Source: Candidatus Bathyarchaeota archaeon (lineage in GTDB: Archaea; Thermoproteota; CALKCG01; B24). From it: a stretch of DNA of 64,000 nt. Under the pieces are notes generated by a model, which was not told where the DNA came from, ran no database searches, and saw only the letters and a program-made list of their open reading frames with translations. A program made the position numbers and the translations under genes. Every line of letters starts with the position of its first letter. Within the stretch, counting starts at the first letter, position 1. The DNA is taken from the NCBI GenBank assembly GCA_021161255.1, contig JAGHAZ010000027.1:2076-66075 (forward strand). Direction: 5' to 3'. Below, one piece after another: positions 10 to 21,792 of the stretch.

Positions 10-2313
10 GTGAAGCTGGCTGCGAAGTACTTTACGTTTAACCCGGTCACCATAATGTTCCACGGATTGGCTGAAAAGTATCTAAAACTGGCTTTAGAGG
101 CGTACAAGCAGAGAGACTATGGGCTGAGCTATGCATCGGCCTACGCAGCTTGGGCTTATGAGCAGGTGGCATACTACTCGATGATGGACCTGATATGGCA
201 GGTAATATACACTATAGTGGTGATATCCATCGCTATAATACCGTTCGCATATGCGATGAGCAGGCTCGTCGGGCTTGAAGGCCGTAGGCTCATAGCCGGT
301 GTGCTCATAATATTTGGAGTCATGCTGATCGTGCTCGACATATTCCATCCAGGTTTCCACTTGGCTAGCAATGCCGGAATGGCGATCTTGGCATTCGGTA
401 CCGCCATAGTAATATTGCCGCTACTGGGCTTCGTGATACGTGAAGCCATGATGAGCGCCAAGACCTTGAAGGAAAGGATGATCGGTATGCACACCGCCGA
501 GATAAGCCGTTCTACCATAGCGTTCCAGGCGTTCTCGCTATCAATTCAGAACATGCGTAGACGACGTTTCATGACGGTGCTGACCCTAGTCTCCATAGTA
601 ATACTGGTCTTCTCGATGGTTACGTTCACCTCGCTTATGGCTGCGCCTAGGCCTGTAGAGGACATACGAACCATATCGGAGGGAGAGACACCGCCGCTGT
701 ATCAGGGTATACTGATACGTAGGCCTGTGTGGTCGCCTATACCGGAGGAGATGTACTATCAGGTCATCCACCAGTTTAAGGGTACAGGCATATATTCGGC
801 TAGGGGTTGGCTGTTCCCACCGCCTCCGCAGAGAGGTTTAGGGTTCTTCGCGTTCTCAGATAAGCTGATAACAAAGGTAGGCGCCGTCTTATTCCTGAGC
901 CCTGAGGAGAAGGAGATCTCCCACATAGACGAGATACTGCTACCCGGTAGCGACTGGTTTGGACCTGACGACGTTTACACATGTATCATAAGTAAAACCA
1001 TGGCTGATAACCTGACTAAAGAGTTGGGTAGGCCGATAACGATAGGCTCGGTTATACCGTTTCTAGGTATGAATCTTAGGGTTATAGGGATGTTTGACGG
1101 TGGCCTTCTATGGTCTGGAAGCGAGGGCTTCGTAGACTTAGACGGTGAACCCATAACGCCGCTTATGCCGTTGATAACGACGGGTGCCGGTAGGGCTGTG
1201 CCGTTCCACTTCACCGGAGACTTGATAATGCTCATGCCTCTTAAGGCCTGTCTTCTACTTAGGGAGCGTGCTTACATAGTGAGCATAGCATACAAGCCAT
1301 ATAATACGACTGCTATACGCGAGATCGCCCGTAACTTAGCCCTGAGGATCGCGACTGATGTGTATTACAGCGACGCTCCGGATAGAATCGGGATCGTGAG
1401 ATATCGGCAGTGGTTCACGGTCACAGGGTTTGAGACGTTCATAGCCCCGACGATAATCTGTAGCTTCACGATCTTGAACATGATGCTCGCTAACGTCCAC
1501 TACAGAACCAGGGAGATCTCTATCTACATGGCTGTAGGCCTGTCGCCACTCCACGTTTCGGTATTGTTCCTCGCAGAATCGCTAGTGTACGCCCTGTTAG
1601 GGACGGTTCTAGGGTACGTGTACGGCGTGATCGGGTGCTGGATCTTCAACATATTAGGCCTATATCCGCCAGGATTCTACCCCAACTTCTCGTCGTTCTA
1701 CGTGTTCATCGTATTAGGGTCAGCCTCACTAGTAACTGTACTGTCGACAATTTATCCATCGTTAAAGGCGTCGAGGCTTGTGACACCTTCCCTCGAGCGT
1801 AAATGGAGGATTCCTCCACCTCGTGGAGACGAGTGGGAGATACGAATGCCCTTCGTGTTCTCGGGTAGAGAGATCTACGGGTTCCTAGCGTTCGTGAACG
1901 AGTATCTAGACGCGCATAGGACCGAGGGAGTGGGTGCCTTCGCCACCTTCGGAGATATCGAATGGAAATTTGAGAGGGACCCGCTAGAAGAGAGGGATAC
2001 TAAGACGTTGATAGCCAACGTACGGCTTGCACCGTTCGACGTAGGCATCACCCAGAAAGTGATGGTTATAGCCGAATCGCATAGAAAACGGCCGTATTCG
2101 CTTACCATATACCTTCAGAGGACGACCGGCTTGTTGAGTGACTGGGTGAACTCCAACAGGCCGTTCATAGACAACATGAGGAAGCAGCTGCTGATATGGA
2201 GAACGTTGAAGCAGACGGATAAGGAGAAGTACATCGACCTAGGGTTAACGTTATTTAGGAAGAAGCTCGGTATTAGTGACGAAGAGTTTAAGAAGCGTCT
2301 GGGTTCAGAATAG
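10..2313 (+). CDS. Giant membrane protein with C-terminal FtsX/MacB-like (DUF214-type) permease domain and ~200-aa cytoplasmic tail; probably 5'-truncated by the window edge (no in-frame stop upstream of pos 10)
   Basis: A TM cluster is followed by the motif ...ICSFTILNMMLANVHYRTREISIYMAVGLSPLHVSVLFLAESLVYALLGTVLGYVYG..., characteristic of FtsX/MacB permease TM2-4. The architecture (FtsX domain then a cytoplasmic tail starting ...PSLERKWRIPPPRGDEWEI...) is paralogous to 14978..18577 and 18619..21792. Confidence 0.6.
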   Translation: MKLAAKYFTFNPVTIMFHGLAEKYLKLALEAYKQRDYGLSYASAYAAWAYEQVAYYSMMDLIWQVIYTIVVISIAIIPFAYAMSRLVGLEGRRLIAGVLIIFGVMLIVLDIFHPGFHLASNAGMAILAFGTAIVILPLLGFVIREAMMSAKTLKERMIGMHTAEISRSTIAFQAFSLSIQNMRRRRFMTVLTLVSIVILVFSMVTFTSLMAAPRPVEDIRTISEGETPPLYQGILIRRPVWSPIPEEMYYQVIHQFKGTGIYSARGWLFPPPPQRGLGFFAFSDKLITKVGAVLFLSPEEKEISHIDEILLPGSDWFGPDDVYTCIISKTMADNLTKELGRPITIGSVIPFLGMNLRVIGMFDGGLLWSGSEGFVDLDGEPITPLMPLITTGAGRAVPFHFTGDLIMLMPLKACLLLRERAYIVSIAYKPYNTTAIREIARNLALRIATDVYYSDAPDRIGIVRYRQWFTVTGFETFIAPTIICSFTILNMMLANVHYRTREISIYMAVGLSPLHVSVLFLAESLVYALLGTVLGYVYGVIGCWIFNILGLYPPGFYPNFSSFYVFIVLGSASLVTVLSTIYPSLKASRLVTPSLERKWRIPPPRGDEWEIRMPFVFSGREIYGFLAFVNEYLDAHRTEGVGAFATFGDIEWKFERDPLEERDTKTLIANVRLAPFDVGITQKVMVIAESHRKRPYSLTIYLQRTTGLLSDWVNSNRPFIDNMRKQLLIWRTLKQTDKEKYIDLGLTLFRKKLGISDEEFKKRLGSE

Positions 2314-2325
2314 AGGTGAGTCTGT

Positions 2326-4287
2326 ATGGCCGAGCAGGAGATTCGCCCTGGACTGACTTGGAGGTCAATACTAGCCCTAATATTCTCCCTATTCCTAGTG
2401 CAGCCGGTGATGATATACTACTACCTCATAAGCGCCCAGTGGTTCCCACTTCAGGCTTGGATAGTGATCCTGCTATGGTCGGAGATCGCGCACTTCCTAG
2501 GCTCTCCGTTAAGTAAGCAAGAGCTCTTCATCCTACTGAGCTTCCAGTGGATGGCCTCCTACTATGCGCAGCTCTTCAGCATGGGCGGCCCCTATGACTT
2601 GGTTAAGAATGCATATATGGCCTACAGCCCTGAAGCACAGGCCCTAGGGATCTCACAGTACGTTCCGTCTTGGTGGGTACCGCCTCAAAGCGAACTCATA
2701 AGATTGACCATGGAACGCACGTTCCTCTACTTCGACCCGGTGTGGCTTATCCCGTTGGGGATAGCGGTTTTAGCGTTGATATTTAACATGGTTGCCGATA
2801 TATCCATGGGCTATTTCACTTACTCGCTCTACGTGAAAGTGGAGAAGCTCCAGTTCCCCGCCGCTAGGGCAGCCGCCGAGACAGTCTTAACGCTGGCTGA
2901 GAGAGATCCACTGCATATGAGGATACTGATGCTATCTATTCTCTTCGGTGCGCTCTACGACTTATTCGTGAGCTTCCTACCATACCTACTCGGACCTTAC
3001 CTAGCCAGTGGAGGAGCCGCGATCTACACGGTTCTTCTACCGATCGCTCAAACCTTCGACATGACGCCTGTGATAGCGCACTTCCTACCAGGGTTCGGCT
3101 TCGCCTTCACCTTGAACTTGATGACGTCTCCGGCAGGCTACATATCAGGGTTCATACTCCCCATCGACATATGTCTAGCCCAGTTTTTAGGGGCCTTCAG
3201 CTACTACTGTATAGGAACGCATCTGATAACGAGGTTTAACCTCTGGCCGGCTGAAAGTCCATACGATATTTCGTGGCCGCTGGCTATACTTGTCCAAAGG
3301 TCTCAGCTATACTTCTACACGAGCCTCACCATAGGTATGGCCTTGGCAGCCACGTTCCTTCCGATGCTGATAAGACCTAAATCGGTCATCAGGGCCTTCA
3401 GTTCGCTGGCTAAAGCGAAAGGTGCAGAGGGAGAGGGTCCTCCGCTATACTTGCTACTCGCGGCTTTCCTAGGGGCGTGCACTGGAGGCATGCTACTGGT
3501 ATACTTCCTAACAGGGTTCCCGCTTTGGATTCTAGCAATATTCATGATCGGCGGTTCGTTCTTCGCGTCGTTTATGGGTGCAAGCGCCGCAGGTGTTACC
3601 ACTACCGGGTTTAACGTGCCCATGCTTCCGCAGCTGATGATATATCTGACCGGTTGGCAGGATAAGCGCATATGGTTTGCTCCGACAAACATATACGCCG
3701 GAGGCCCAAGTATAGCCCAGGCGTTTATGCAGGCGGACATACTGAAGGCTAGAAAGTCCGAATATATCAAGACCTATATACTGATATTCTTCGTAGGCGT
3801 TCTCGTTACCATACTCTTCGTGTCCTATCTATGGACTCTATCGCCTATACCGTCTGGAGCGTATCCTGCTACGATGGTATACTGGCCGGTCGACGCCATG
3901 AACTGGGCTAGATGGCAGGTCTGGATGTGGTCCGGCTACCTGTTCAGGAAAGACCTTCTGATCGGAGGATTCGCTATAGGCTCAGTGATATACCTGATAA
4001 CGGATCTTATATTCCATAAACCATACTTCCTAGTGGCTTTCATCAGCGGAGCGTATGGTAGCTGGTTTGGCTACACCATGCAGCTTCCATACACGCTGGC
4101 CCAGCTGATAGGGTCGATAATCGGTAACGTGGTCGTAGCCAGAGTTCTAAGTAGGAGGACAAAGATACCTTACGGCGTATTCGCCTACAGGTTCTACATG
4201 GGTACCACGATCGGATGGGGTCTGATGGAGAGCATAAGAGCGTTACTGGTGCTAGTCAGCCGAGCGATGTGGCTACTGCCATACTAG
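2326..4287 (+). CDS. Polytopic membrane protein, divergent member of a triplicated unknown family (E-K-L-Q-F-P..ER motif)
   Basis: 653-aa ORF that is hydrophobic throughout. It shares the E(R/K)xxFP...E...ER segment and the C-terminal R(V)..S(R)...YGV(F/P) pattern with 4357..6444 and 10990..12960. A T7 run follows at 4311-4317. Confidence 0.6.
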   Translation: MAEQEIRPGLTWRSILALIFSLFLVQPVMIYYYLISAQWFPLQAWIVILLWSEIAHFLGSPLSKQELFILLSFQWMASYYAQLFSMGGPYDLVKNAYMAYSPEAQALGISQYVPSWWVPPQSELIRLTMERTFLYFDPVWLIPLGIAVLALIFNMVADISMGYFTYSLYVKVEKLQFPAARAAAETVLTLAERDPLHMRILMLSILFGALYDLFVSFLPYLLGPYLASGGAAIYTVLLPIAQTFDMTPVIAHFLPGFGFAFTLNLMTSPAGYISGFILPIDICLAQFLGAFSYYCIGTHLITRFNLWPAESPYDISWPLAILVQRSQLYFYTSLTIGMALAATFLPMLIRPKSVIRAFSSLAKAKGAEGEGPPLYLLLAAFLGACTGGMLLVYFLTGFPLWILAIFMIGGSFFASFMGASAAGVTTTGFNVPMLPQLMIYLTGWQDKRIWFAPTNIYAGGPSIAQAFMQADILKARKSEYIKTYILIFFVGVLVTILFVSYLWTLSPIPSGAYPATMVYWPVDAMNWARWQVWMWSGYLFRKDLLIGGFAIGSVIYLITDLIFHKPYFLVAFISGAYGSWFGYTMQLPYTLAQLIGSIIGNVVVARVLSRRTKIPYGVFAYRFYMGTTIGWGLMESIRALLVLVSRAMWLLPY

Positions 4288-4356: not shown

Positions 4357-6444
4357 ATGGCAAGACTTTTAAATTCTCTGAAGAGATCAACTAGTGGTTT
4401 GAAAATGAGCGAGGAGGTTAAGGAGTTTAGGATAAGACCATCGCTTCTCGTTCCCTTGATAATCCTAACGGCTGTACTATCGTTCATAGGGACAGTTGAG
4501 ATCGCTTTGAACGGCTCTGTCGGCGGCGCCTTCATGTGCCGCTACGCGTGGGGTACGGTCTCCAAGACGATGGGTATTCCGATAATGTCGCTACTAGTAA
4601 TCCTGTTAGCTTTCCCGTTTAAATATCTGAGAGGCCGGTTGTCGCCTTCTACGCTTGTCTCCCTTTACGTCGTCGGCGCCGCTGTGGCGATGTATGGTAT
4701 CGGACACTACGAGACGTTCGCGTGCTGGCCGGTAGGATTCGCCAGAACGCTCCTGTATACTGAGCCGGAGTTCCTACCGGTCGCGGAGAGCTGGTGGTGG
4801 ATGCCACCATACGACGTAGTACAGCTTATAAACGCAGGCGGAGCTGCGACTGACTGGGGAGCATGGTCAGGAGCCATACTATTCTGGTCGCTATACCTAC
4901 TGGTCTTCTACCTATTCGGATCGAGCGTGATGCTGCTCTTCAGACGGAGATGGTTGGACATAGAGAGGGTGCCGTTCCCATACGTCATAGCGACCCACGA
5001 ACTCATAAGACGGGTCTCCGGAGAACGCGGATTAGAGAAGACGACGAAGTGGTTTATCATAGGCTTTGTTATAGCGTTGCTCTTCGAAATACAGGTCATG
5101 TGCACATATATATGGCCGTGGTGGCCAGACCTGCTTGCTTGGAGAGGCACGGCTGTAGACGAAACAAGCCCACAGGGATGTGTATGCGTCTATGCTAACG
5201 ACCCTATTGAAAGCGCCCTTGTATGGTGGCCAGGCTATACAAAGAATGTCCTACCGTTCCTAGTGTACTATCTAGCGCCTTTAGATGTATTACTTTCAGC
5301 ATGGGTATTCTTCTTAATAGTGGTAATACTCGCTCAGATAGCTTACATGATGGGCTACTACACAGGAGTCTTTGAGATGGGAAGCGCCTGCAGAATACTT
5401 GGATGGGCTGGCTCTGATATATCGCCTCTATTCGGTCCGCCGTACTACTGGATGTGGGTGACGATGATAGGTGGCACACTTGCTGTGACGGTCATGATGA
5501 TGTTCCACGCCAGAAGCTACCTCGCCGAGACTATAAGGCTTGCTATGCGTGGAGGCAGGTCTCCAGAGGAGGCTAACGAACCCTTCACCTACAGACAAAT
5601 ATACATATTCATCGTGATCTCCGCGATAATACTACTTGCGTTCTGCTTCTCAGCGGGATTAAGCATAGGAACGGCCTTGGCAGTATTGATAGTAGGTGCG
5701 TTCATAAACACCGTGGCAGCAGCATACGTCCTAGGTTTAAGCGGATGCGGCTATATACACGAAAGAGCCTTGTGGCCCAGCTGGCCTCTAAGATTCATAT
5801 GGCCCACCGCTCCCCAGAACTACAGTGCAGACTGGATCATGAGCCACGTCTTCATGCACACAGGGCTCAACCACGTAACTCACGGAGTACAAACCGGGGC
5901 ATACCTCACAATACAGAACCTTAAGATGGGTAGCCTAGCTAAGATAAATCTCCGAGACATATTCATACTGACCACTATAGCCAGCATCGTAGCGATATTC
6001 GTCGGAAACGCTACAAGGGTTTGGATAATAAATCTTCTAGGAGTTGCGCGTGTCCCGATATGGGGTAGCTGCTCGGTCACCCAATGGTGTGATAACGACT
6101 TTGAAAGATATGCGCAGGCTCCACCTGCAGAGTTCCAGTTTACGGCAGGTGCTGCAGGTTTCGTGATAACGATGATACTATTCCTTCTAAGGGCTAGGTT
6201 CATATGGTGGCCTCTACACCCAGTAGGCTTCATACTGGCGACCGGTGTGGCGCCTAACTGGATGAGGGAATGGAATGCTATGCTTGGTGCTTGGATAGCC
6301 AAGTTCCTGACCCTACGCGTAGGCGGTAGCAGAGCCTACGAAGAATACGGCGTACCCTTCGTAAGCGGAGGAATCGCAGGTTATGCGCTATCGAACCTAA
6401 TAGCCTACCTAGTAGGCACGGTGAGGTTCTTCATACCGTTCTAA
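4357..6444 (+). CDS. Polytopic membrane protein, unknown family (WLDIERVPFPY motif; C-terminus ...LTLRVGGSRAYEEYGVPFVSG...RFFIPF)
   Basis: 695-aa ORF and a clear paralog of 10990..12960: WMPPYDVVQLINAGGAATDWGAW vs MCPPYDVVIRLSTGGPIDWGAW; WLDIERVPFPY vs WIDVERVPFPH; identical C-terminal logic. Its 3' flank is shared with 10990..12960. Confidence 0.65.
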   Translation: MARLLNSLKRSTSGLKMSEEVKEFRIRPSLLVPLIILTAVLSFIGTVEIALNGSVGGAFMCRYAWGTVSKTMGIPIMSLLVILLAFPFKYLRGRLSPSTLVSLYVVGAAVAMYGIGHYETFACWPVGFARTLLYTEPEFLPVAESWWWMPPYDVVQLINAGGAATDWGAWSGAILFWSLYLLVFYLFGSSVMLLFRRRWLDIERVPFPYVIATHELIRRVSGERGLEKTTKWFIIGFVIALLFEIQVMCTYIWPWWPDLLAWRGTAVDETSPQGCVCVYANDPIESALVWWPGYTKNVLPFLVYYLAPLDVLLSAWVFFLIVVILAQIAYMMGYYTGVFEMGSACRILGWAGSDISPLFGPPYYWMWVTMIGGTLAVTVMMMFHARSYLAETIRLAMRGGRSPEEANEPFTYRQIYIFIVISAIILLAFCFSAGLSIGTALAVLIVGAFINTVAAAYVLGLSGCGYIHERALWPSWPLRFIWPTAPQNYSADWIMSHVFMHTGLNHVTHGVQTGAYLTIQNLKMGSLAKINLRDIFILTTIASIVAIFVGNATRVWIINLLGVARVPIWGSCSVTQWCDNDFERYAQAPPAEFQFTAGAAGFVITMILFLLRARFIWWPLHPVGFILATGVAPNWMREWNAMLGAWIAKFLTLRVGGSRAYEEYGVPFVSGGIAGYALSNLIAYLVGTVRFFIPF

Positions 6445-6451
6445 GGTAAGT

Positions 6452-6530: not shown

Positions 6531-7124
6531 ATGATCAAGTGGATAGTCTCCCTAGGTCTCTCGTTACTCGCTCTCGGGTCTCTTCTATTCACGGTTTCTC
6601 AAACCCTGGAAACTCACTCCCAGTCGATAACGCCTGAGGTATTATTGTATCAGGATAGGTTTGAGATGAAGCGTGAAGAAGTCAGGGTCTACAACTTCAC
6701 GTTTCCCCAGAATGTGACGGTCGTCACCATCGTAGGGTCCAACATGTGCGTAGGCCTTAGAATATACAACGAGACGTTTCAAGAGTTTATCGACGAGATG
6801 GGTGGATTAAGCATGGTGAATTATACCGACATCGCTGAGCTTCTGGGGAATATGCCTAAACCAATCTCATGGTCCCACAGTGAATATTACAGACATTTGA
6901 TACCAAACAATAAAACCATGACCTACTACTTTATACTCTACAACTATCCTGCATGTTATCCTAAAAGCGTCCGCTTAGAAATAGGATACACCACCGGTGA
7001 GATAGAGGTGCCTAGGGAAGAGCCCATAACGTTTAGAAACCAGCTACTATCGGCGGGTTTAGCCTCGATAGCCCTAGGATGCCTAATAGCGCTATACGGC
7101 TTCGTCAGAGAACCTAAAATATAG
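6531..7124 (+). CDS. Small secreted/anchored protein: N-terminal signal/TM, five N-x-S/T sequons, C-terminal TM anchor
   Basis: 197-aa ORF with an N-terminal hydrophobic segment (IVSLGLSLLALGSLLF). Sequons are NFT, NVT, NET, NYT and NKT. The C-terminal hydrophobic stretch is LLSAGLASIALGCLIALYGF. Confidence 0.5.
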   Translation: MIKWIVSLGLSLLALGSLLFTVSQTLETHSQSITPEVLLYQDRFEMKREEVRVYNFTFPQNVTVVTIVGSNMCVGLRIYNETFQEFIDEMGGLSMVNYTDIAELLGNMPKPISWSHSEYYRHLIPNNKTMTYYFILYNYPACYPKSVRLEIGYTTGEIEVPREEPITFRNQLLSAGLASIALGCLIALYGFVREPKI

Positions 7125-7138
7125 AGGCTGAGAGGAGA

Positions 7139-8377
7139 TTACTCTATAAGCTCCTCCACGTTCTTCTTTATCTTCTCTATAGTCGCCACTACGAGGTCTG
7201 CCGCTTCTTTTCCTCCTAAGAGGATCTGATGCGGTAGGGTTATCTCTCTTTTACAATACTCTTCAGCGCCTGGAAGATGTAGACTTTCATAATCCGGTAT
7301 CTTCCAATCTTCCGGGAATATCCCCTTAAGATTTTCTTTTTTGAAAGCCGGTTGCTTATACAAGGGCATACCGTAGCCGGCACCCGCTGGTATCCCCTCA
7401 GCGTTCAAAGCCTCTAAGAACTTTTCTTTAGGAAGACCGTGAAACTCCTCGGGATCGTATCTTATCACAAAGAAGTAGTAGCCTCTCTTAGTAATCCTAT
7501 CGTCCCTCTTAAGCGGCTCAACCCCACCTATCCTCCTCAGCTTCGAAGCCAAGTACTCGCCAGTCTCATGTTTAAGTTCCACATGCTCCTTGAGCCTTCT
7601 CATCTGCGATATCAACAGCCCAGCCTGAATCTCTGAAAGCCGGTAGTTAGAGCTTAAGATGAAATGCATGTATCCAGGTTTGCCGAGAACCCTACCTATG
7701 TTATGGATGAGCCTAGCTCGTTCGGCGAGTTTATCATCATTAGTCAAGACGATTCCACCTTCACCAGCCGTCAAGGTTTTACTCTCCTGTAGGCTGAACC
7801 CTCCCATATCCCCGATCGCCCCGACCTTACGACCTCTCCACTCAGAGCCGTGGGCGTGAGCTGCGTCTTCTATTAGAAAAAGACCGTTCCTCCTCACCAC
7901 CGGAAGGACTTCGTCGAAATTTATAGGATAGCCTGCGTAATGGACGCCTATAACAGCCTTGGTCCTCTCGCTTATGTTCTCCTCTATCGACTCGGGGCTT
8001 ATGGTCGCGGTCTCAGGGTCTACGTCTGCGAAGACCGGTATAGCCCCCACCTCGCTCACGGCTGAGGCCGTGGCTATAAACGTCACAGCTGGCACTATAA
8101 CTTCGTCTCCGAAGTTGACTCCGATAGTCTTAAGGGCGAGTTCAAGGGCCACCGTCCCGTTAGCTACGGCTATCCCGTATTTGGCTTGATGATACTCTGC
8201 AAACATCCTCTCGAAAACCTCAGCCTTAGAACCGGGGTAAAGCCTACACCACCGTCTACTTCTAACGACCTCTACTACAGCTCTCTCATCTTCCTCATCG
8301 TAGATAGGCCAAGGCGGAACAAGCTCCCTAAGCCTCTCCGCCTCTCTAGGGCCACCTTTTAAAGCTAACCTAGCCAT
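7139..8377 (-). CDS. DegT/DnrJ/EryC1/StrS-family PLP-dependent sugar aminotransferase
   Basis: ...GTVALELALKTIGVNFGDEVIVPAVTFIATASAV...GAIPVFADVD...AVIGVHYAGYP...FLIEDAAHAHG...DMGGFSLQESKTLTAGEGG... matches the AAT_I / DegT fold and catalytic region. Confidence 0.8.
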   Translation of the reverse strand: MARLALKGGPREAERLRELVPPWPIYDEEDERAVVEVVRSRRWCRLYPGSKAEVFERMFAEYHQAKYGIAVANGTVALELALKTIGVNFGDEVIVPAVTFIATASAVSEVGAIPVFADVDPETATISPESIEENISERTKAVIGVHYAGYPINFDEVLPVVRRNGLFLIEDAAHAHGSEWRGRKVGAIGDMGGFSLQESKTLTAGEGGIVLTNDDKLAERARLIHNIGRVLGKPGYMHFILSSNYRLSEIQAGLLISQMRRLKEHVELKHETGEYLASKLRRIGGVEPLKRDDRITKRGYYFFVIRYDPEEFHGLPKEKFLEALNAEGIPAGAGYGMPLYKQPAFKKENLKGIFPEDWKIPDYESLHLPGAEEYCKREITLPHQILLGGKEAADLVVATIEKIKKNVEELIE

Positions 8378-8411
8378 CGAATCAAAATCGAGTCGGCATC
8401 GGCTTTAAGAT

Positions 8412-9654
8412 TTATTCCCTTTCTATCAACCGTTTAATCGCCATAGTTATGATCACGTTCATCGCTAAGACCGCTATTGAGGCGAGAAACGGGATCCTGG
8501 GGTCTATCTGGTAAGCGTATCCGGCTAACGTGGGGGTTAACCAGTTAGCTAATGCCGAGAACGTGGTAGATAAGGAGAGCACTTTCGCCCTGGCCTTCTC
8601 GTCCACTATGTCTATCCTATTAGTTAAAAACGTTCTAACAGACGGATATGCGAGGGTATAGAAGCCGCTAAGCACTCCCGATAAGGCTGCTAAGCTTAAA
8701 TATCCTTTAGGCGTCGTCACGAGCACGGTGAGTGATAAGGCTGATAGAAGATATGCCATGGTCAAAGATTTAAGAAGCCCAACCTCACCCCGTATCATAG
8801 GAGAAAAGATCGTAAGCAGGAGGATCGACGTGACTGAAGAGGCTGCAGGTACCAAGGATGCGAGACTTTCGTCTAAAGCTAGTCCTCTAGAATCGGTGAG
8901 GTATAGTGCATTGTAGGTGCCTGAGACTGTGAAGTAGAAGTTGCCTAGTATGTTGCATAGGAATATCAGGAGTATGGCTCTTCTCCTGATAACTATCTGG
9001 AGCGCCTTACGATAGCCTTTAAATGTCGCTTCTCTCCTTCAGCAAAACCTTACCTATTTCTGTCTCCCTCAGAAGGGTTTGTCTTAAAATGAACATGGTC
9101 GTTAAAGTTGTTAATGCAAGCATACACATGGCTCTGTAACCTGCTACGATACCGTATGTAGATACCATGAGTCCAGCTAGCGGTGTCAGTAGGTTTCCGG
9201 AGACGTAGATCAGGTTGATATAGCCGTATATGCTGGCTCTATACTCTGGAGAAGTGTCCTCGACAAGCATACATTCCCAGACCGGAAATATGACCGTTAC
9301 AAGACCTTCAAACACGATGGCTAACATCATCTGCCAAAACTCTGTAGCCAGCATCCACAGAGCTAGTGAAGTGATCCAACCCACCACGTCGAAGGCCATG
9401 AAAACCCTCTTTCTCCCAAACCTATCGGCGAGATACCCTCCTAACAGGGGGAGAAACGTCTGTAATATCGAGTATAGGGTTATAGTGAAGCCTATCTCGA
9501 CCTCTGACACACCTAGGCTTTTCATGAATATGGGCCTGTAGAAGAATATCCAGCTCATGGGGATGCTCCAAAGCGGCTCGGTAGCTATTAAAACCTTAGC
9601 GTTTCTACCCCACTCTTTAAATGGCGTCTTTATCGAGACCTTTGCTTTACCCAT
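8412..9654 (-). pseudogene. MFS-family transporter interrupted by a single frameshift near 9020-9030 (T3A3 run); the two halves are ORFs 9019..9654 and 8412..8855
   Basis: The N-terminal 6-TM half ends ...LLKERSDI*. The next frame is open from ~9032 and reads ...KGYRKALQIVIRRRAILLIFLCNILGNFYF..., continuous into the 147-aa ORF. That is the central loop and TM7-12 of an MFS protein. Confidence 0.55.
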
Positions 9655-9719
9655 GGAATTCCCCTATCTAAAGCCGGTTAACATTCTTGATTGAGAGAAA
9701 AAGAATAGAGGGAGAATGC

Positions 9720-10868: not shown

Positions 10869-10989
10869 TATGAATACGCATATCAGAACCAGCGTCTTAT
10901 AAGATTATCCAAAAAATCGAGATCCGGTGGACATTTCTTCCCGGAAAGAATTATAAAGTCTCCGGGTAGAAATTACATGGGGGTTTTCT

Positions 10990-13038: not shown

Positions 13039-13806
13039 TTGAGGCTCAAGACCGTCGTCTTTGTACTCCTGATAATATCGTTTTTCTTAGTCGAGGTTTT
13101 CAGCTTCTCTTCGGCCAGTTTCTCTCAGCCTGATTGGATCCGGTCGGGTGTCTACGTCGAGTATGGTTGCAACGTGACTGTTTATAAAGGGGCGCCTTAT
13201 GCTCCGAGTTCTGGAACTTTTAGATGGACCATAGTGAACGTGACTGACGATAAGATTTATGTGCGTTATGAGATGAAAATCGAGGATCTCTTGCTCGAGA
13301 AAACCTTTGTGATAGACGCAGAGACCAATAGGATACTATCGATAGACGGGGAATCTGTGGGAAACATTACAAACTATCTCTGGATCAGCTACATTCCGAG
13401 GGTCGGAGACTTTATCCAGCTTGAAAATCTCACCGCTGAAGTCGTGGATCTGAGGAAGTTTTCTTCAAGACTATTCACGAACCGGACATGCTGGGTTACT
13501 AATGCGACTTTCAGCATAGCTGATGTTAACGCAGGAGATTTGAAAAACGCTACCATGGAGGGTTTCATAGAGAGAATATATGATTCTGAGACCGGTATAC
13601 TCGTGTATTCGCGTTTTCTCATAGAGTTTAAAGAGCCTGATGGTAAGGTTTCTCAAAGCTACTTTTCTAGAATGATAATCTCTTCGACGAATGTGACAGA
13701 ACTTGGTAGTCGACGGCCAGCTTCTATCCCCATGGCTGTTGCGGCGGCCTCTATAGTAGCGGTCCTTGTATTGGCTAGAAGAATCCTCCGTATAAGACTA
13801 GCTTGA
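13039..13806 (+). CDS. Secreted, heavily N-glycosylation-sequon-bearing protein with C-terminal TM anchor
   Basis: Signal-like N-terminus (VVFVLLIISFFLVEVFSFSSA). It has 8 N-x-S/T sequons (NVT, NVT, NIT, NLT, NRT, NAT, NAT, NVT). The C-terminal anchor is PMAVAAASIVAVLVLARRILRIR. The architecture and position mirror 6531..7124. Confidence 0.5.
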   Translation: MRLKTVVFVLLIISFFLVEVFSFSSASFSQPDWIRSGVYVEYGCNVTVYKGAPYAPSSGTFRWTIVNVTDDKIYVRYEMKIEDLLLEKTFVIDAETNRILSIDGESVGNITNYLWISYIPRVGDFIQLENLTAEVVDLRKFSSRLFTNRTCWVTNATFSIADVNAGDLKNATMEGFIERIYDSETGILVYSRFLIEFKEPDGKVSQSYFSRMIISSTNVTELGSRRPASIPMAVAAASIVAVLVLARRILRIRLA

Positions 13807-14665: not shown

Positions 14666-14977
14666 TTTTTATGCATCTCCAGCTTCGTTAAGCTAGACTT
14701 CTAGACGCTTTAGATAGAGGTGACATTTAATATATGTTTTCCACACCTCCTCCTGCCGATGTCTATAGAAAGGGGTTAGTATTGGGGGTTAAATTGTGGA
14801 AACCGGTGTGGTTGGGTGTTTATTATCTGAACGATGGATGGAGGATCTGCGTCTTCTTCTAAAGAAACTTGGGTGGTTGAGCTTGTGAGAAACGGATTGT
14901 TGGGAAGTTGGGTTTTGTAGAAAACTTAAAAAGCGATTGTGTAAGGTTAGTAGTATAGAGCTTGGAGGGGGTCGGAA

Positions 14978-17900
14978 TTGAACGCTAACTCCTTTAAAGT
15001 TATTTTAACTGTTTTAGCAGTTCTGTTATTGATTCCTGTTTCTACTTTAACTGTTGCTCAAGAATCCATCAAAGATGTGAAATGTACATTGATACTGTAT
15101 ATTATGAATTATGTGACGAGTTCTCCAGAACCTAGGATTAATGTGTCGGTTGTCTTAACTAACGTGACTTTAAGCGGTGTTACCGATGAATTTGGTTGCG
15201 TAAAGTCTTCTTTCAACGCGTCTAAAGATGCGATTAATAATCTAGTGTTAAATGAGTTATCGTTGTATGGGAACTTCACTGTGATAAGGATTCAGGATTA
15301 TTTGATGGAGGATCTCCAATATGATTCGTCTTACTCTGAATCTACTGTAACATACACTGGCTTGGCTATAAGGCCGAGAGTTGTGGAGAGTAGGAATGAG
15401 GTTCTTCTGTATTATTATGTGTACGTGTTGAAAGGTAGGGTTGTGAACGTGAGCGATTTGGACGTTTCTACCATGCAGATCCTTTCAAACGGTGAATTAC
15501 GTATTAGGCGAAGAAAGCTCATTTTAGACGCTAGACCGGCTGTTCCTATAGATAGGTCTGTTAGCATGTATGAGAGCTTGTATCTATTCCCCTTGAATTA
15601 CACGGTAGATGTGAAGGTAAAGGTTTATCGTTACAGGTACTTGATTAGAGAGTATTCTGTTAAAGCACTTGTAACTGGTAATAGAACCTATGTCAACATT
15701 ATGGGTCCGATTCTAGATATTAAGATTAACGAGACGTTAAAGCCTTTTGAGGAGAAGATCGCTACTCTTAAGTTTTTAGGTTTGCCTATGATCGATGAAG
15801 AAAGGCTCCTTATAAGAATTAATAATCAGAAAGACAGTATTCTGAGGTTGATCGAAAATAGGAGCTATGACCCTGCATTTGCCCAATTAAGATTCTTAGC
15901 TAAGAAGGTCGCTGAATTAGAGAGTAATCTATCTAACCTGGATGCCTCTTTAGCGTGGTCTTCTATATTGGTTATGGCGTTCATCTATGCTTTTTCATCA
16001 CTTTTACCTACTTTGATGACGGATGATGCCAAGAGGAAGCTTATTCTAAAATTTGCTATATATTTCTCTTTGTTCTTAATTTTCCTATACAGTCATAACG
16101 AGTTTAAGATCGCATTGTCGATTATCTCATCGAATATTCTACTGACCAATATCAAATATCTTGACGATTTCACGGTATTGCTTATGGGTGTGACCGTTGG
16201 AAGTTTAGGAGTTTTGATACCGACCTTGATATCGCTGTATTCTCCTCCGGTAGTAAGCTTAAGTCTAGATTTAAGCATAAGGGACCTTAAACGTCATTTT
16301 TCAAGGTCTCTTCTTACGATTCTCGCGTTCTCCCTTATAATAGCGTCGACGTTGGCTGTTTTTAAGATGTCCTATAGCCATATGCTCTCTGAAACGGAGA
16401 CGCAAGCTCATTTCAAACGCGACGTCGTGTGTCTACAATCCACGACCAACAATATAATCGTTAAGGAAAATCTAATATTCCTGAAGTCTATGCACTGGAT
16501 TAACTCATCTTATCTCTTTAAATCGTTATATGGTGATATTTCATTGGATAGTATCTCAGGTTTCACAGCCGTAAGAATAATTTCGCAGGACTACGGTATG
16601 CTTGACCAAAGGTTCGAGATCTTAGGAGTCGACCCAGAGTTTCTCGATGAGTACTTCAACTTCTCTCTAACGATAACCAAAGGCGGATACCTCTCTGGAA
16701 GCGAGAGGGCTGTTCTCGTACCTGCTTCGTTAGAGTATTATCTAAGACCTTTGGATAGAGTTAGGATACGCTTTGTGATCGTAAGCGCGACCGGACAGCA
16801 ACTTGTAGATGTTGCTGAATACGATTTCGGTGAGTTTATAGTTAAAGGGTTCTTCGACCCCGACTCTGTAGACAAAATAACCCTTCCTGATGGGTCTCCG
16901 TTAATAGATACTCCGTATAAGACGATTATAGTCCCCGGGGATCTTCTGCCAGATTCGATAGATGCGCGGCACTTGACGATAACGATTCCTAGGCTTAGGA
17001 ATGTCGTGTCCTTCCAAGGACCAACATACATAAACATACTCAAAGTCCGATATGCGTTCCTACTACCCGACCCCCGTAGCGGAGTCGACGTTTACGAGAA
17101 AGCTAGGGAGCTTATGGACCTGACGGGCTTCCGGGCGTTCGGCTTCTCAAACGGAGTCTGTAAAACCTATGAGGAGCTGTATGTCCTAAACATCGTAGGT
17201 TTTTCATCGATCGTGCCTCCTATCGTGATAGTGACGCTTATAATCGTACTTGTCATGAACTCCGTCATCTATGAGCGTCGTAAGGAGATATGGACCCTAG
17301 CCGTTTTAGGCGGTAACCCACGTAATATCACTAACATGTTTCTCACCGAAGCCTTGATCACAGGGATTCTATCGACGACTATAGGGTATCTATGTTATAC
17401 AGCCGTCTACCTGTCCTCAAGGGTGTTGATACCTATCATACAGAGCTTGAACCCTGAGATGGTTAAGCTTTTCACGGAGATGAAGTCTACATCAGGCTTC
17501 GACCTTTCCTCTATTCTCATAGTGTTGTTCATGGGCTTGGCTGTCCCGGTGGTCGGTAGCTATATACCCTGCATAAAGGCCCACGGTTTAACCCTACTCG
17601 GTAGACCTCCCAAGAGGAACATAGGGGAAGACGTACGAACGAGAGGAGAGCTAGCTGAGTATCATCTTCCGATCAGGGCCACGCCGTTCGACGGAGAGAT
17701 GCTCTACAATTATCTGAAAGACAACTTCCTTACGAAAACTTTCCAGGTTAAGAAGCTCTCTGGAAATGCTTATCAGGATGGGACCTTCGACTTCAAGTTT
17801 ACGCTACAGTTTAGGAACGTGCTTACTGAGTGTAGTTTAAAGGGTATCAGGCGGGGAGATACGATATATCCTGTTTTAACGTTCCCTGCGAAGTTTATCG

Positions 17901-18577
17901 ACGCTATGGACCTACACAAGTTCATATATGACCTCGAGAAGGTTTCCCTCGGATACCCATCGTGGAGGGAGAAAAACATGCGGCTTGAGATAACTAGGGT
18001 TAAACCTGTTACTAGGGTTAGAACAGTGGACGACGTTTTACGCGATGTTAGAGTGGTTCGTGAACAGCTCCGCGTCGTCGACAGCAAGCTCAAAACTCTA
18101 GAAAAACTCAAAGCTACGACACCGTCGGAATTGTTGACCGAATACGAGAAGAAATACCTCGCTCAGGCTGAAAGGCTTAACCGTACTATACGTCGTCTCG
18201 GTTTGGAACTCGAGCCGTTCTATGAGGAACTTAATAAGGAGTCTCAGAAGTTAAGCACCGAAATAGACCGGCTGAATATAGCCTATAAGCTTGGAGAGAT
18301 ATCCGAAGAAGAATACAGGTCTTCTGTAGAGCCTCTGAAGAATAGGCTTAGCGAGGTTCAGAAGAAGCTTAACGATATAAAGTTCGTGCTGACTCAGCTT
18401 AAGATGCCGAGGGCAAAGCTTACGAGGATAAGGTTGCCGGCACGGAGGATCGCACGGAGAAAGAGGGTCGAGGAGACCCCAGGCCTTATGTACTGTCCAT
18501 ACTGTGGAAGCACGAACCTAATAAAAACTCCAAGCGGCTCGATAATATGCGGGAGATGCCGTAGAAGACTACGTTAA
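14978..18577 (+). CDS. Giant (1199 aa) surface/membrane protein: signal peptide, ~320-aa extracellular domain, TM cluster, MacB-like periplasmic-type domain, FtsX permease domain, cytoplasmic coiled-coil, C-terminal C4 zinc ribbon
   Basis: TTG start. FtsX motif ...IVLVMNSVIYERRKEIWTLAVLGGNPRNITNMFLTEALITGILSTTIGY.... Heptad-rich segment ...LRVVDSKLKTLEKLKATTPSELLTEYEKKYLAQAERLNRTIRRLGLELEPFYEELNKESQKLSTEIDRLNIAYKLGEISEEEYRSSVEPLKNRLSEVQKKLNDIKFVLTQLK. The protein ends with CPYCGSTNLIKTPSGSIICGRCRRRL. Confidence 0.65.
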   Translation: MNANSFKVILTVLAVLLLIPVSTLTVAQESIKDVKCTLILYIMNYVTSSPEPRINVSVVLTNVTLSGVTDEFGCVKSSFNASKDAINNLVLNELSLYGNFTVIRIQDYLMEDLQYDSSYSESTVTYTGLAIRPRVVESRNEVLLYYYVYVLKGRVVNVSDLDVSTMQILSNGELRIRRRKLILDARPAVPIDRSVSMYESLYLFPLNYTVDVKVKVYRYRYLIREYSVKALVTGNRTYVNIMGPILDIKINETLKPFEEKIATLKFLGLPMIDEERLLIRINNQKDSILRLIENRSYDPAFAQLRFLAKKVAELESNLSNLDASLAWSSILVMAFIYAFSSLLPTLMTDDAKRKLILKFAIYFSLFLIFLYSHNEFKIALSIISSNILLTNIKYLDDFTVLLMGVTVGSLGVLIPTLISLYSPPVVSLSLDLSIRDLKRHFSRSLLTILAFSLIIASTLAVFKMSYSHMLSETETQAHFKRDVVCLQSTTNNIIVKENLIFLKSMHWINSSYLFKSLYGDISLDSISGFTAVRIISQDYGMLDQRFEILGVDPEFLDEYFNFSLTITKGGYLSGSERAVLVPASLEYYLRPLDRVRIRFVIVSATGQQLVDVAEYDFGEFIVKGFFDPDSVDKITLPDGSPLIDTPYKTIIVPGDLLPDSIDARHLTITIPRLRNVVSFQGPTYINILKVRYAFLLPDPRSGVDVYEKARELMDLTGFRAFGFSNGVCKTYEELYVLNIVGFSSIVPPIVIVTLIIVLVMNSVIYERRKEIWTLAVLGGNPRNITNMFLTEALITGILSTTIGYLCYTAVYLSSRVLIPIIQSLNPEMVKLFTEMKSTSGFDLSSILIVLFMGLAVPVVGSYIPCIKAHGLTLLGRPPKRNIGEDVRTRGELAEYHLPIRATPFDGEMLYNYLKDNFLTKTFQVKKLSGNAYQDGTFDFKFTLQFRNVLTECSLKGIRRGDTIYPVLTFPAKFIDAMDLHKFIYDLEKVSLGYPSWREKNMRLEITRVKPVTRVRTVDDVLRDVRVVREQLRVVDSKLKTLEKLKATTPSELLTEYEKKYLAQAERLNRTIRRLGLELEPFYEELNKESQKLSTEIDRLNIAYKLGEISEEEYRSSVEPLKNRLSEVQKKLNDIKFVLTQLKMPRAKLTRIRLPARRIARRKRVEETPGLMYCPYCGSTNLIKTPSGSIICGRCRRRLR

Positions 18578-18618
18578 AAAAGGAAATTAAATTTGAGAAA
18601 TTCATGAAAATGACATTT

Positions 18619-21600
18619 TTACCTTCCAGATCCAGTACCGGTCATCAGAGACTTCTTGTATCTCTCCCAGTCTTTAAGCGCATCTCTTACGACGCTTACC
18701 GTTAACTCTATCGCTCGCTCAGGCATACCTTCGACCTCGGGTTTCGACAAGAGAGTTATATAGAACCTATCTGAATCACGCGTTCTCGTAGCTCTGAGCT
18801 CGTTTATGGTGGCATACTCCTTGTATCTGTGTATAAATCGTACTCTGACTACCTCAGTGCCGTCAACTAGAATCTCTTCTTCAAGCTTGAGGTTTTCGAT
18901 GCGTTCGACTAGACCCGAGACCTCCTTCAACCTATCAGTTATGAATGCTGTGAAGAAGGGTTTCTCGCGTTTATGAACCCTAACAGGCATGGATATGCTT
19001 CTCTCATGGTAAACCTTGAAGATCTTCTCCTCTCTCTTAGCCTTCTCAGCCTCAGGGATCTTGACTTTTCTTATAAGCGATGGAGTGGCCATAACTGCTG
19101 CTCTGATCGCGGGTACAACCGCGGATAGCACCGAAACACCTATCGAAACCAGTAGCCCTATAACACCCCAATACCATTCAAGCTTCTCTCTGACACCTAT
19201 CTGCCCAGCGGGTCCTAGTAGGCTCATAAGCCTGTAGGCACCTAAACCGATGTAGTAGCCTATGCCGCCGCCTATAAGACCCATAACTATCGACTCGGCT
19301 AGGAAGACGCTGGCTATGTGTGCTGGGTTAAGCCCTAACGCCGCTAAGAGGAACATCTCGTTTCTACGTTCGTAGATCAGGTTGATCATCACCATGAACA
19401 CGTTCAGGAAGACTAGCGTAGCCGGTATCAGAAGCTCTTTGAATCCCTTAATCTCCCATTTTTCACCTGTGTATACTTTTGTAACTTCGCCGTTGAAGAA
19501 GATCCAGGCATAGTATTCTCTCAGAGCCATCTTGTTAGCAAAGTTCTTTAATGTTTTTTCATCGCCCATGGGGATGAAAACCGCAGATATGCCCACTTTT
19601 TCCGAGAGACCGGTTGTCTCTCCCTCTGAAGAGGGAAGCGATATTATCGTCCAAGCGTTGAAAACGGCGAACTCTGTGGCGTTGACAGGCTGAAGTTCTC
19701 CTTCGCTGGTAAGCTTATAGGGTGCTATAGGCTTACCGTTCAAATCGTTAACTCCCAGAATCGCTGGGTTTACATAGCCTACTAGCGTAAAATTCCAGGT
19801 TTGCGTTTCCACACCTCCCATTAGTCGAGATACTTGAATCCTATCCCCAGGCTTTACTCCGAGACTCCTAGCTAAGCTTTCGGTTATCGCTATGCTCATG
19901 TTTTCCTCGAAGAATCCCTTCGGCAAGTAGTTGGCCACGCCTAAGACCTCAGCCTCCTCAGCGGTTAAACCAAGTACACCTAGGAGGTCTACGTTACGCC
20001 CCTTCAAACTCCTTAAACGCACCACCGAGGAGTTTGAGGGAACGTTTTCCACCCTGATCATAAAGTTCTCGGCTCCATAGGCCTTCAAAGCCTCCAGCTC
20101 TCCTGCTGCGAAAAACTGTTGCACACTCGAGATCTTCGTGGCATTCAGAGGTGCCTTCTCTAAGAGACAGCCATTCACGTGAACGTTTGTAGAGGAGGGG
20201 CCCTCGACTACTATACCTTGAACCCTCGAGAACGATGTAAACGCTGTCAGCACCATCACAAGCATCGCTAGCGATAGGATGCAGAAGCTGGACCTAAGCT
20301 TTCTACGTTTGACGTTACGCTTGCCTATGGAGAATATGACGGTGATTATACTCTTAAGCGACGCTCTCCCCTCGATCTCTGGTGGTCTATAGATCCGTGG
20401 GAAGATGAAGTATAGGGTGACCGTTAACACGATCGACGCTATGATCACAGCGATGAAGAATAGATTTCCTTGAACTGTTACAGCCTTAAGGCCGAATACC
20501 TTTCCGAAGCCGAAGAGGTCGAACACTATCTTACACTGAGGATGCATGATTATCCTGAAGCCTGGGTAGATGTAATACAGCGAGACTATGATCAGTGGGT
20601 ACAATATTAGCGTCGTGATCAGCTTTTTCCTAGTGTCTTCAAACAGGAAGCTTCCTATAGCTATCGAGAAGACGGCGAAGAACGGTGGATAGAACGTTGC
20701 ATGAGACTGTGCTAAAGCTCTCATAACGCCTAGACGGTTTTCAAGAAGCCTTAGACTGTAGTATGCTTCCTCAAGATACTGAAACCTAGCCGCGTCAAGC
20801 TCGCTCTCGGTTGGGCTTGGGTTCAACGGTGGTAATAAGCTTTTAGCCGCTTCAACGTTTTGTATAACTCCCTGCTGGAGGTCTTCTCTCTCAGCTCCGA
20901 CGTAGAATCCTTCTTGCTCAGCCTGTGCAAGCTTCTCCTCGAGTTCCCTAGTTAAAGTCTCAAGCGTGTCGGCGCTCACTTTATACATCTCGCTTCGGAT
21001 GTCTACGAGTATCTTCTCTCCCTTATGCAACTTTATCGGTTTACCTTGAAAGCCTATGAGCATAGAGAGAACATCTTTCCTCCTCGTACGTTCATTGAGG
21101 AATTGCATCTTCGCTACTAGATAGACGGATGTATCAGCCGGTATTATTATCACGTTTCTTGCGAATAACTCTCGTGAGGATAGATACTGAATGTCGGCTC
21201 CTAATATTCCAAGCCTTTTTTTAACGCTGTGAACCGGTGGCTCACCGTATATCACGACTGTTCCACTAGGAAGCATGGGCGTTTCGAAAGTCGAGGAGTC
21301 TACAAGGGTAATTATATACCATGAAGGCGCAGATTTGCTGAGTATATACCACATGTCGGCTTTTCTCCTTGGATAGATCTCCACCATAGCCCCTGGTACG
21401 AGATCAAAATCTATTTTCAACGAGTTTTTTACCCCACCGTTCGAGATATCTTCAGGATATAGCGCCGGTACGTAGTCGACCAATCCTGTAGACTCGTTTG
21501 TATGGAGCACATAGATCAGATACTCACATCTCAGACCGTACATGTCATACATCGGTAGAGTGATCTCGTAGAAGCCCTCGCTGTTCGTGTACGTGATAAA

Positions 21601-21792
21601 ATATCTCTGCTCAAAGCTTCCACGCCAGGGTATCGCTATTATAGTTGCGTTAAAGATGGGCTTCGACGTGTAGTAGTCTATAACCCTACCGTAGATCCTT
21701 AAGGTCTCATCGTTCGGCTGAGCGATAGCGTTAAACGTTATTAAGGATAGTAGCACTAGAGTGATGGAAAGCAAAATCTGTTGTCTTCGCAT
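18619..21792 (-). CDS. Giant (1057 aa) surface/membrane protein: signal peptide, carboxypeptidase-regulatory-like (transthyretin-fold-like) N-terminal module, extracellular coiled-coil, TM cluster, FtsX permease domain, cytoplasmic tail
   Basis: ATG start. The N-terminal ...RIYGRVIDYYTSKPIFNATIIAI... pattern is typical of CarbopepD_reg-like beta-sandwich modules. FtsX motif ...LVFLNVFMVMINLIYERRNEMFLLAALGLNPAHIASVFLAESIVMGLIGGGIGYYIG.... Paralog of the other two giant ORFs. Confidence 0.65.
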   Translation of the reverse strand: MRRQQILLSITLVLLSLITFNAIAQPNDETLRIYGRVIDYYTSKPIFNATIIAIPWRGSFEQRYFITYTNSEGFYEITLPMYDMYGLRCEYLIYVLHTNESTGLVDYVPALYPEDISNGGVKNSLKIDFDLVPGAMVEIYPRRKADMWYILSKSAPSWYIITLVDSSTFETPMLPSGTVVIYGEPPVHSVKKRLGILGADIQYLSSRELFARNVIIIPADTSVYLVAKMQFLNERTRRKDVLSMLIGFQGKPIKLHKGEKILVDIRSEMYKVSADTLETLTRELEEKLAQAEQEGFYVGAEREDLQQGVIQNVEAAKSLLPPLNPSPTESELDAARFQYLEEAYYSLRLLENRLGVMRALAQSHATFYPPFFAVFSIAIGSFLFEDTRKKLITTLILYPLIIVSLYYIYPGFRIIMHPQCKIVFDLFGFGKVFGLKAVTVQGNLFFIAVIIASIVLTVTLYFIFPRIYRPPEIEGRASLKSIITVIFSIGKRNVKRRKLRSSFCILSLAMLVMVLTAFTSFSRVQGIVVEGPSSTNVHVNGCLLEKAPLNATKISSVQQFFAAGELEALKAYGAENFMIRVENVPSNSSVVRLRSLKGRNVDLLGVLGLTAEEAEVLGVANYLPKGFFEENMSIAITESLARSLGVKPGDRIQVSRLMGGVETQTWNFTLVGYVNPAILGVNDLNGKPIAPYKLTSEGELQPVNATEFAVFNAWTIISLPSSEGETTGLSEKVGISAVFIPMGDEKTLKNFANKMALREYYAWIFFNGEVTKVYTGEKWEIKGFKELLIPATLVFLNVFMVMINLIYERRNEMFLLAALGLNPAHIASVFLAESIVMGLIGGGIGYYIGLGAYRLMSLLGPAGQIGVREKLEWYWGVIGLLVSIGVSVLSAVVPAIRAAVMATPSLIRKVKIPEAEKAKREEKIFKVYHERSISMPVRVHKREKPFFTAFITDRLKEVSGLVERIENLKLEEEILVDGTEVVRVRFIHRYKEYATINELRATRTRDSDRFYITLLSKPEVEGMPERAIELTVSVVRDALKDWERYKKSLMTGTGSGR

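Follow-up and report, generated by a model that had tools for sequence, protein, structure and literature searches.

The stretch of DNA analysed here, referred to as the window, comprises 64,000 nucleotides (nt) from a Candidatus Bathyarchaeota archaeon (assembly GCA_021161255.1, contig JAGHAZ010000027.1). Near its 5' end lie three open reading frames (ORFs) for giant membrane proteins, here named P1, P2, and P3 (ORFs 1 to 3), which a preliminary description of the locus had taken for paralogues with an FtsX/MacB-type permease domain. This observation is confirmed, as are the positions of the three ORFs and their shared architecture; the description had omitted that P3 is encoded on the minus strand, convergent with P2. 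The three proteins are distant paralogues, 23-27% identical in pairwise BLASTP comparisons (E values of 3e-17, 3e-11, and 1e-8), and their homology extends from a MacB-type first transmembrane (TM) helix through an extracellular core domain and three FtsX helices to the start of a cytoplasmic tail. Because full-length homologues exist down to 25% identity, we reject the possibility that these are chance or pseudogene ORFs. P3 has 34 homologues; P2 has six, with 56-91% identity and lengths of 1179-1219 amino acids (aa), and thus represents a narrow class.

The topology of the giants was derived from hydropathy, positive-inside charge, and counts of N-glycosylation sequons, all three of which concur. 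From the N terminus, the common order is a signal peptide, an ectodomain, three extra TM helices, a short basic cytoplasmic loop, TM1, an extracellular domain of ~260 aa, TM2, a coupling helix, TM3, TM4, and the cytoplasmic tail (Table 1). The portion of P1 inside the window begins with the extra TM cluster and continues through the MacB TM1, the extracellular core domain, and FtsX TM2-4 to the tail. The N-terminal ectodomain of P2 carries 10 sequons in 295 aa, and the DNA spanning it (window positions 14001-16000) has a G+C content of 0.40, compared with ~0.50 elsewhere.

Table 1. Features of the giant-protein locus, with window positions, strand, and the basis of each assignment.
Feature	Positions	Strand	Basis or remarks
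ORF 1 (P1)	1..2313	+	Cut at 5' window edge; C-terminal 770 aa of an M28-FtsX-tail giant; FtsX 55.3 bits; 97% aa identity to L010
P1 FtsX TM2-4, including coupling-helix motif HYRTREISIYMAVG	1435..1764	+	Pfam match aa 485-592; hydropathy
P1 cytoplasmic tail (TPSLERKW..., conserved alpha+beta domain)	1765..2310	+	Tail alignment A2; hmmsearch matches on orthologues P0035, P0036
653-aa polytopic protein, distant OPT-like (DUF6785/6784) relative, directly after M28-FtsX giants	2326..4287	+	hhalign 97.7% probability, E 2.5e-12 against DUF6785 family
DUF6785+DUF6784 polytopic protein (OPT superfamily)	4357..6444	+	DUF6785 110.9, DUF6784 59.7, OPT 26.3 bits (cut-off 25.8)
197-aa protein, hydrophobic anchor at each terminus, with sequons	6531..7124	+	No Pfam/NCBIfam match
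Second DUF6785+DUF6784 polytopic protein	10990..12960	+	119.8 and 54.4 bits
255-aa anchored, sequon-rich protein	13039..13806	+	No Pfam/NCBIfam match
ORF 2 (P2), 1199 aa	14978..18577	+	Signal peptide, sequon-rich ectodomain, 3 TM helices, MacB module, tail core, coiled coil, 4-Cys zinc ribbon; FtsX 42.0 bits
P2 FtsX TM2-4 (YERRKEIWTLAVLG)	17183..17581	+	Pfam match aa 749-868
P2 core tail domain, homologous to P1/P3 tails	17582..18037	+	Alignment A2; tail HMM matches P2 orthologues P0039-P0044 at ~aa 854-986, varying by protein
P2-specific extension: coiled coil (aa 1021-1145) and CPYC...CGRC zinc ribbon (aa 1171-1194)	18038..18559	+	Cysteines read from translation
ORF 3 (P3), 1057 aa	18619..21792	-	Signal peptide, Ig-like/CarboxypepD_reg ectodomain with long helical hairpin, 3 TM helices, MacB module, tail; FtsX 39.4 bits
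P3 cytoplasmic tail: basic linker and beta-alpha-beta4-alpha domain (invariant W1042)	18622..19083	-	
P3 FtsX TM2-4 with coupling helix (YERRNEMFLLAALGLNPAHI)	19096..19422	-	Pfam match aa 791-899

All three giants exceed the Pfam FtsX cut-off (PF02687, 25.5 bits), each in a single stretch, and the MacB_PCD profile, weak in the window ORFs (18.6 bits in P1), rises above its own cut-off in relatives. AlphaFold2, given 27 homologues of P3, produced a confident model (mean predicted local distance difference test, pLDDT, 83; predicted template modelling score, pTM, 0.68) that matched two groups of structures when searched against the Protein Data Bank (PDB) with Foldseek: ATP-binding cassette (ABC) permeases of type VII, namely LolC/E, MacB, HrtB, YtrF, YbbP, and BceB, with E values down to 3e-12, and pilin-like immunoglobulin (Ig) domains that correspond to the N-terminal ectodomain. 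The FtsX/MacB assignment of the preliminary description thus holds, and the search with hidden Markov models (HMMs) that it had proposed, in case the regions proved unrelated to FtsX, identifies them as genuine FtsX. Its YERR(K/N)E motif is likewise present, reading HYRTRE in P1. Conservation within the family peaks in the coupling-helix region, with 12 of the 27 invariant columns of alignment A1 falling within aa 796-867 of P3. The giants securely belong to the MacB/FtsX fold superfamily. Their assignment to the MacB, LolCE, FtsX, or ADOP functional families is not secure, because scores lie far under the NCBIfam equivalog cut-offs (24.5 versus 255 bits for FtsX_Gneg, 22 versus 362 for lolCE, and 35 versus 966 for MacB) and the ATPase partner that defines such families is missing.

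Compared with type VII ABC permeases, which they resemble in the FtsX domain, the TM1-core domain-TM2-4 topology, the coupling-helix motif, and the top structural matches (MacB, LolC/LolE, FtsX, HrtB, YbbP, and BceB), the giants add three TM helices, a large N-terminal ectodomain, and a conserved tail of 140-330 aa after TM4. Tail lengths are 154-331 aa, and the net charge is basic (+6, +23, and +7 in P1 to P3). Across the P1, P2, and P3 classes, ~140 residues of the tail can be aligned; a TPS motif marks the point where the chain leaves the membrane, and the last helix contains an invariant Trp. The similar tail starts that had been noticed in all three ORFs are therefore the edge of a whole homologous domain, and the attention drawn to the long tails was justified, as this domain is conserved and defines the family.

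When modelled alone, the tail yields a confident beta-alpha-beta4-alpha fold (pLDDT 86), in which no P-loop or catalytic motif was seen. It has no Pfam match at E<=0.1, a profile search against PDB sequences returned only a chance match (E 1.4), and Foldseek found nothing significant in the PDB (best E 2.7e-3). The predicted fold resembles that of KA1 (kinase-associated-1)/TBP-like domains; this likeness is at the level of the fold only, with a sequence identity of ~10%, and neither Pfam, the PDB profile search, nor Foldseek places the tail in the KA1 sequence family.

In P2, the tail core is followed by the coiled coil and zinc ribbon that the preliminary description had reported for the 1199-aa member. 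Both are present; their Pfam matches, to a CdvA-like coiled coil (25.3 bits, cut-off 30) and to Zn_Ribbon_TF (18.1 bits, cut-off 29), are sub-threshold. We therefore dropped the CdvA-like and TFIIB zinc-ribbon labels and retain a coiled coil plus a four-cysteine ribbon, attributing a weak NCBIfam SMC-related match in P2 to the coiled coil. Some P3-class homologues (P0020, P0021, P0024, and P0025; locus L007, 10001-13387) have a further C-terminal extension of ~130 aa beyond the tail, which is alpha/beta and Rossmann-like by eye. A Pfam scan of this extension in P0020, P0024, and P0025 gave no match and leaves our CARF/Rossmann guess unsupported.

Searched against 1.84 billion representatives, a profile of the tail retrieved 866 clusters (at 50% identity) with E<=1e-3, of which 381 reached E<=1e-10. 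It matches nearly always at the C-terminal end, in proteins of either ~950-1100 or ~1430-1820 aa, and the named carriers belong to Bathyarchaeia, Brockarchaeota, Thermoprotei, and 'Thermoproteota', joined by a bacterial M28-FtsX protein from Armatimonadota. The tail-bearing giants are shown to form a large family, for the most part archaeal (Thermoproteota), whose members are membrane proteins with a single MacB/FtsX-fold module. Literature searches on archaeal or orphan FtsX proteins returned no description of a tail-bearing family, and the giants are an undescribed architectural variant of a known superfamily.

No ABC ATPase is encoded in the window, as had been stated before. A six-frame scan for Walker-A and LSGGQ motifs across the 64 kb found only EF-1alpha, a RadB-like protein, NTPase_1, and Clp1, and a jackhmmer profile of the ABC nucleotide-binding domain, seeded with three ABC ATPases, retrieved nothing in the window; the same profile does recover LolD-, DrrA-, FecE-, and MalK-like as well as fused-exporter ATPases in other loci. 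We extended the search to 109 tail-bearing giants in 92 loci (1.39 Mb, including 79 metagenomic loci); as some of these loci are near-duplicates, the counts depend in part on one another. Upstream sequence of 1.5 kb or more was available for 82 giants, and downstream sequence of that length for 87. An ABC ATPase lies within 500 nt of one of the 109 giants and within 3 kb of two, and the Pfam-annotated contexts of eight homologues contain no cognate ATPase. Genes for the giants are thus essentially never operonic with an ABC ATPase, and about 99% of the loci have neither the fused nor the adjacent ATPase of type VII systems.

Another explanation would make the locus an ordinary MacB-type exporter whose ATPase lies just outside the window. 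This was addressed in the closest public relative, Candidatus Bathyarchaeota archaeon B24 (locus L010; 97% aa and 93.6% nt identity), where the order upstream of P1 is a 177-aa ORF, an FmdE-like gene, a DrrA-type ATPase with an ABC-2 permease, and a complete FecCD-type importer. ABC ATPases do therefore occur in the region 1.7-7 kb upstream, at 1.7 and 6.1 kb, a qualification to the absence that had been noted before. Both sets lie on the strand opposite to P1, the DrrA-type ATPase (323.8 bits, DrrA cut-off 312.45) is accompanied by its ABC-2 permease and the FecCD ATPase by its own binding protein and permease, and both ATPases are absent from the orthologous position in locus L012, which encodes a 54%-identical P1 orthologue preceded by NTP-transferase and HMGL-like genes. 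Having its own permease, an opposite orientation, and no conservation in L012, the DrrA-type ATPase was rejected as a partner. With no cognate ATPase in conserved synteny upstream of position 1, an ordinary exporter locus is very improbable.

The B24 copy also supplies the missing N terminus of P1: counted from the first start codon, the ORF is up to 1564 aa long and has an N-terminal Peptidase_M28 match (40.6 bits, cut-off 21.3). The same domain scores 25-53 bits in the giants of L012, L022, L046, L059, and L085; coverage of the profile is nearly complete in L012 and limited to the first half in the others and in L010. Canonical M28 peptidases bind zinc and catalyse through the series H, D, EE, D/E, and H. 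Read by eye, the M28-like ectodomain of full-length P1 (L010, 7619-10010) has AYLDSW in place of the expected HxD and AGHWQSL in place of AEE, and retains the bridging Asp. We take it for a probable binding domain, either non-catalytic or divergent.

The genes found beside the giants point to a recurrent partner. In the clustering of neighbouring ORFs, two types are the most common: a ~655-aa polytopic protein in 14 loci, whose gene usually overlaps or abuts the 3' end of the giant gene, and DUF6785/DUF6784 proteins in 12 loci. The latter match the oligopeptide transporter (OPT) family of Pfam across their whole length. The 653-aa protein that follows P1 belongs to the former type, is 31% identical to its copy in L015, and is a distant relative of DUF6785/DUF6784; as BLASTP of this ORF against the DUF6785 ORF gave no match, profile-profile comparison was needed to reveal the kinship. 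The interleaved genes previously called an unknown polytopic family are thus OPT-like. Genes of the 653-aa type are adjacent to or overlap a giant in L006, L015, L021/L022, L046, and L059/L078, and in four loci (L022, L046, L059, and L085) a single strand carries a DUF6785 gene, an M28(+PA)-FtsX-tail giant, the 655-aa OPT-like protein, and a P3-class giant of ~1000 aa. L022, L046, and L059 share one gene order, which is permuted in L085. Since the M28 giants of these four loci share only 24-33% identity, the arrangement spans deeply divergent lineages. In the lineage of the window this operon is divided: P1 and two OPT-like genes occupy 1-6.4 kb, P3 lies at 18.6-21.8 kb, and P2 is an extra paralogue. 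The 22-kb island once presented as a single unit is not conserved, and the smaller operon of M28 giant, OPT-like genes, and P3-class giant is; the earlier interpretation is partly supported.

The P3 class also occurs in other settings. Recurrent neighbours are genes of sugar catabolism (GH42, GFO/IDH/MocA, and xylose-isomerase-like TIM barrels, and also ThuA, annotated by Pfam in L008), P3 homologues at 67-70% identity adjoin RFC, TatD, and radical-SAM genes, and close relatives of P3 stand alone in unrelated contexts. To our knowledge, operonic association with FtsX-type proteins is undescribed for OPT transporters, and a literature search found no paper that mentions DUF6785 or DUF6784.

Characterized OPT transporters are proton-coupled. 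If their relatives beside the giants behave alike, they could provide energy or a translocation path while the MacB-fold giants do extracytoplasmic work, an ATP-independent form of mechanotransmission driven by ion-motive force. The tight operon, its genes often overlapping in lineages with such divergent M28 giants, and the OPT match of the partners argue for this coupling. Physical contact between giants and OPT-like proteins is, however, putative, many P3-class genes stand without an OPT-like neighbour, and we know of no precedent; the explanation appears improbable.

We tentatively favour a different account, to which we give close to an even chance, and which, like all functional statements on the giants made here, draws on sequence, predicted structure, and gene context. 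P1-class and P3-class proteins would pair as MacB-type dimers, as LolC does with LolE, and these dimers would associate with OPT-like permeases into a cell-surface machine for the capture or hand-over of nutrients, either peptides or glycans, that has no dedicated ATPase. The two KA1-like tail domains may be placed beneath the coupling helices, the position of the ATPase dimer in ABC systems, and could act there as a membrane-proximal clamp or a regulatory input rather than as a motor. Additional tail modules, such as the coiled coil and zinc ribbon of P2 and the Rossmann-like extension of some homologues, would fit a regulatory role. The genome of the window would then represent a case in which the operon was split and P2 is a lineage-specific extra paralogue. 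A bolder version describes a truly ATPase-free branch of the MacB/FtsX fold, a heterodimer of M28-class and Ig-class giants in which KA1-like tails have replaced the ATPases and ion-coupled OPT-like proteins give the energy, the import path, or both; this we regard as unlikely.

Several points weigh against the surface-capture proposal, and some of them favour an alternative in which the giants are orphan type VII ABC permeases driven in trans by a LolD/MacB-type ATPase encoded elsewhere, perhaps shared among paralogues, with the tail as an accessory. Dimerization, contact with OPT-like permeases, and the substrate are all inferred. The linker before the P3 tail has a pLDDT below 50, and the model therefore does not establish where the tail sits relative to the coupling helix. 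The M28-like domain appears, by eye, to lack the canonical zinc and catalytic residues. The strong conservation of the coupling-helix region is what would be expected were an ATPase still docking there, and the survey covered loci and not complete genomes, so that orphan LolD-type ATPases elsewhere in a genome fall outside its scope. In Armatimonadota, the gene cluster of the M28-FtsX-tail protein includes a small FtsX protein and an ABC ATPase.

A further point of this kind comes from locus L033, where a 234-aa ATPase is encoded 283 nt upstream, on the same strand, of an ordinary 1004-aa tail-bearing giant of the P3 class. Its best NCBIfam matches are all of type VII (LolD at 235 bits, MacB, DarD, DevA, FtsE, and YbbA), and no other permease lies beside it. 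Tail and ATPase are thus not mutually exclusive, and this LolD-type ATPase therefore keeps an ATPase in trans and an ATPase-independent mode both in play. The same locus contains a canonical small system (8801-11295, minus strand) of a PadR regulator, a LolD-type ATPase, a 114-aa ORF, and a 215-aa FtsX permease, which means that these archaea do have ordinary type VII ABC systems, a point in favour of supply in trans. Against supply in trans, among the 82 giants whose available upstream sequence reaches 1.5 kb or more, only one has an ATPase next to it, and this ATPase is missing from relatives that share 59-69% identity with the L033 giant. Known type VII systems encode their ATPase adjacent to the permease or fused with it, and in all three classes the conserved 140-aa domain begins directly after TM4, where canonical permeases end. 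Supply in trans nevertheless retains a considerable share of the probability and is a real contender, if held at less than even confidence.

Paired paralogues within one operon are a further likeness between the giants and LolC/LolE. The nearest precedent for clustered FtsX-type permeases called orphan is the bacterial ADOP family (TIGR03434), the acidobacterial duplicated orphan permeases, which are defined by having no neighbouring ATPase. ADOP proteins are bacterial and have two FtsX modules, whereas the giants have one module, a different ectodomain, and the tail; the ADOP profile matches them locally over one module, with 36.5 bits against a cut-off of 622.3, and does not extend the family to them. 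Clusters of ADOP paralogues with a MacB periplasmic domain have been described (PMC3914696).

A second comparison can be made with FtsEX and its effectors EnvC, PcsB, CwlO, and RipC, in which a MacB-fold module uses a helical stalk to hold or control a hydrolase-like domain outside the cytoplasm. The giants fuse an M28-like domain, or Ig domains and a helical hairpin, in cis. In contrast to the FtsE-driven complexes, which act on peptidoglycan, they are without FtsE and occur in archaea that have no murein, and their M28-like domain looks catalytically degenerate.

Mechanotransmission, where ATP hydrolysis in the cytoplasm drives work outside the membrane, has the MacB/FtsX fold as its textbook example. 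Here a large family keeps this fold and its coupling helix, has a conserved non-nucleotide-binding domain in the ATPase's stead, and is accompanied by OPT-like permeases, which prompts the question how the fold might be powered or put to use without an ATPase. Bathyarchaeia and related Thermoproteota are abundant archaea of sediments whose cell-surface biology and nutrient acquisition are almost unknown. If the ATPase-free version outlined above holds, the giants and their OPT-like partners would constitute an archaeal surface capture-and-uptake machine that employs a mechanotransmission fold without ATP.

The region around the giants differs between relatives. In locus L013 (4766-9998), a gene for a 1523-aa Ig-repeat surface protein and a 225-aa ORF come before the 67%-identical P2 orthologue on the same strand, with a gap of 2 nt; the 1523-aa protein has a CarboxypepD_reg match and faint SpaA- and macroglobulin-like matches, and the arrangement is absent from the window. 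Within the island, a segment at 7124-8414 containing a DegT/DnrJ aminotransferase gene (7139..8377) is not shared with B24 or L014, and the second DUF6785 gene (segment 10908-12928) is positioned differently than in L014, indicating local rearrangement. Between these, an MFS transporter gene at 8412-9654 on the minus strand appears split into 8412..8855 (147 aa) and 9019..9654 (211 aa; MFS_1, 75 bits). As its colinear counterpart in the 91%-relative L014 is intact (423 aa), the split gene is either a pseudogene or the product of a sequencing frameshift.

Beyond the giants, the window contains no tRNA gene and no Rfam family. A gene for the large subunit of RuBisCO, possibly form III, lies at 21921-23213 on the minus strand (277.8 bits), between P3 and an M20 peptidase gene. 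The segment bearing it (21882-23261) has no counterpart at that position in the otherwise colinear L014 and L016 and was either inserted or lost in a lineage-specific manner. A 506-aa polytopic membrane protein without a Pfam or NCBIfam match is encoded at 24667-26187 and in the same position in L014. Finally, an M28-FtsX cluster lies directly upstream of rpoB in an archaeal metagenomic contig (L015, 18149-24686) and another near the bacterial rpoB in the Armatimonadota contig (P0028), a proximity that may be coincidental. Two long ORFs of the window (39166..46330; 1111 and 1275 aa), candidates for rpoB and rpoA' by size alone, are ~17 kb from P3 and ~37 kb from P1.

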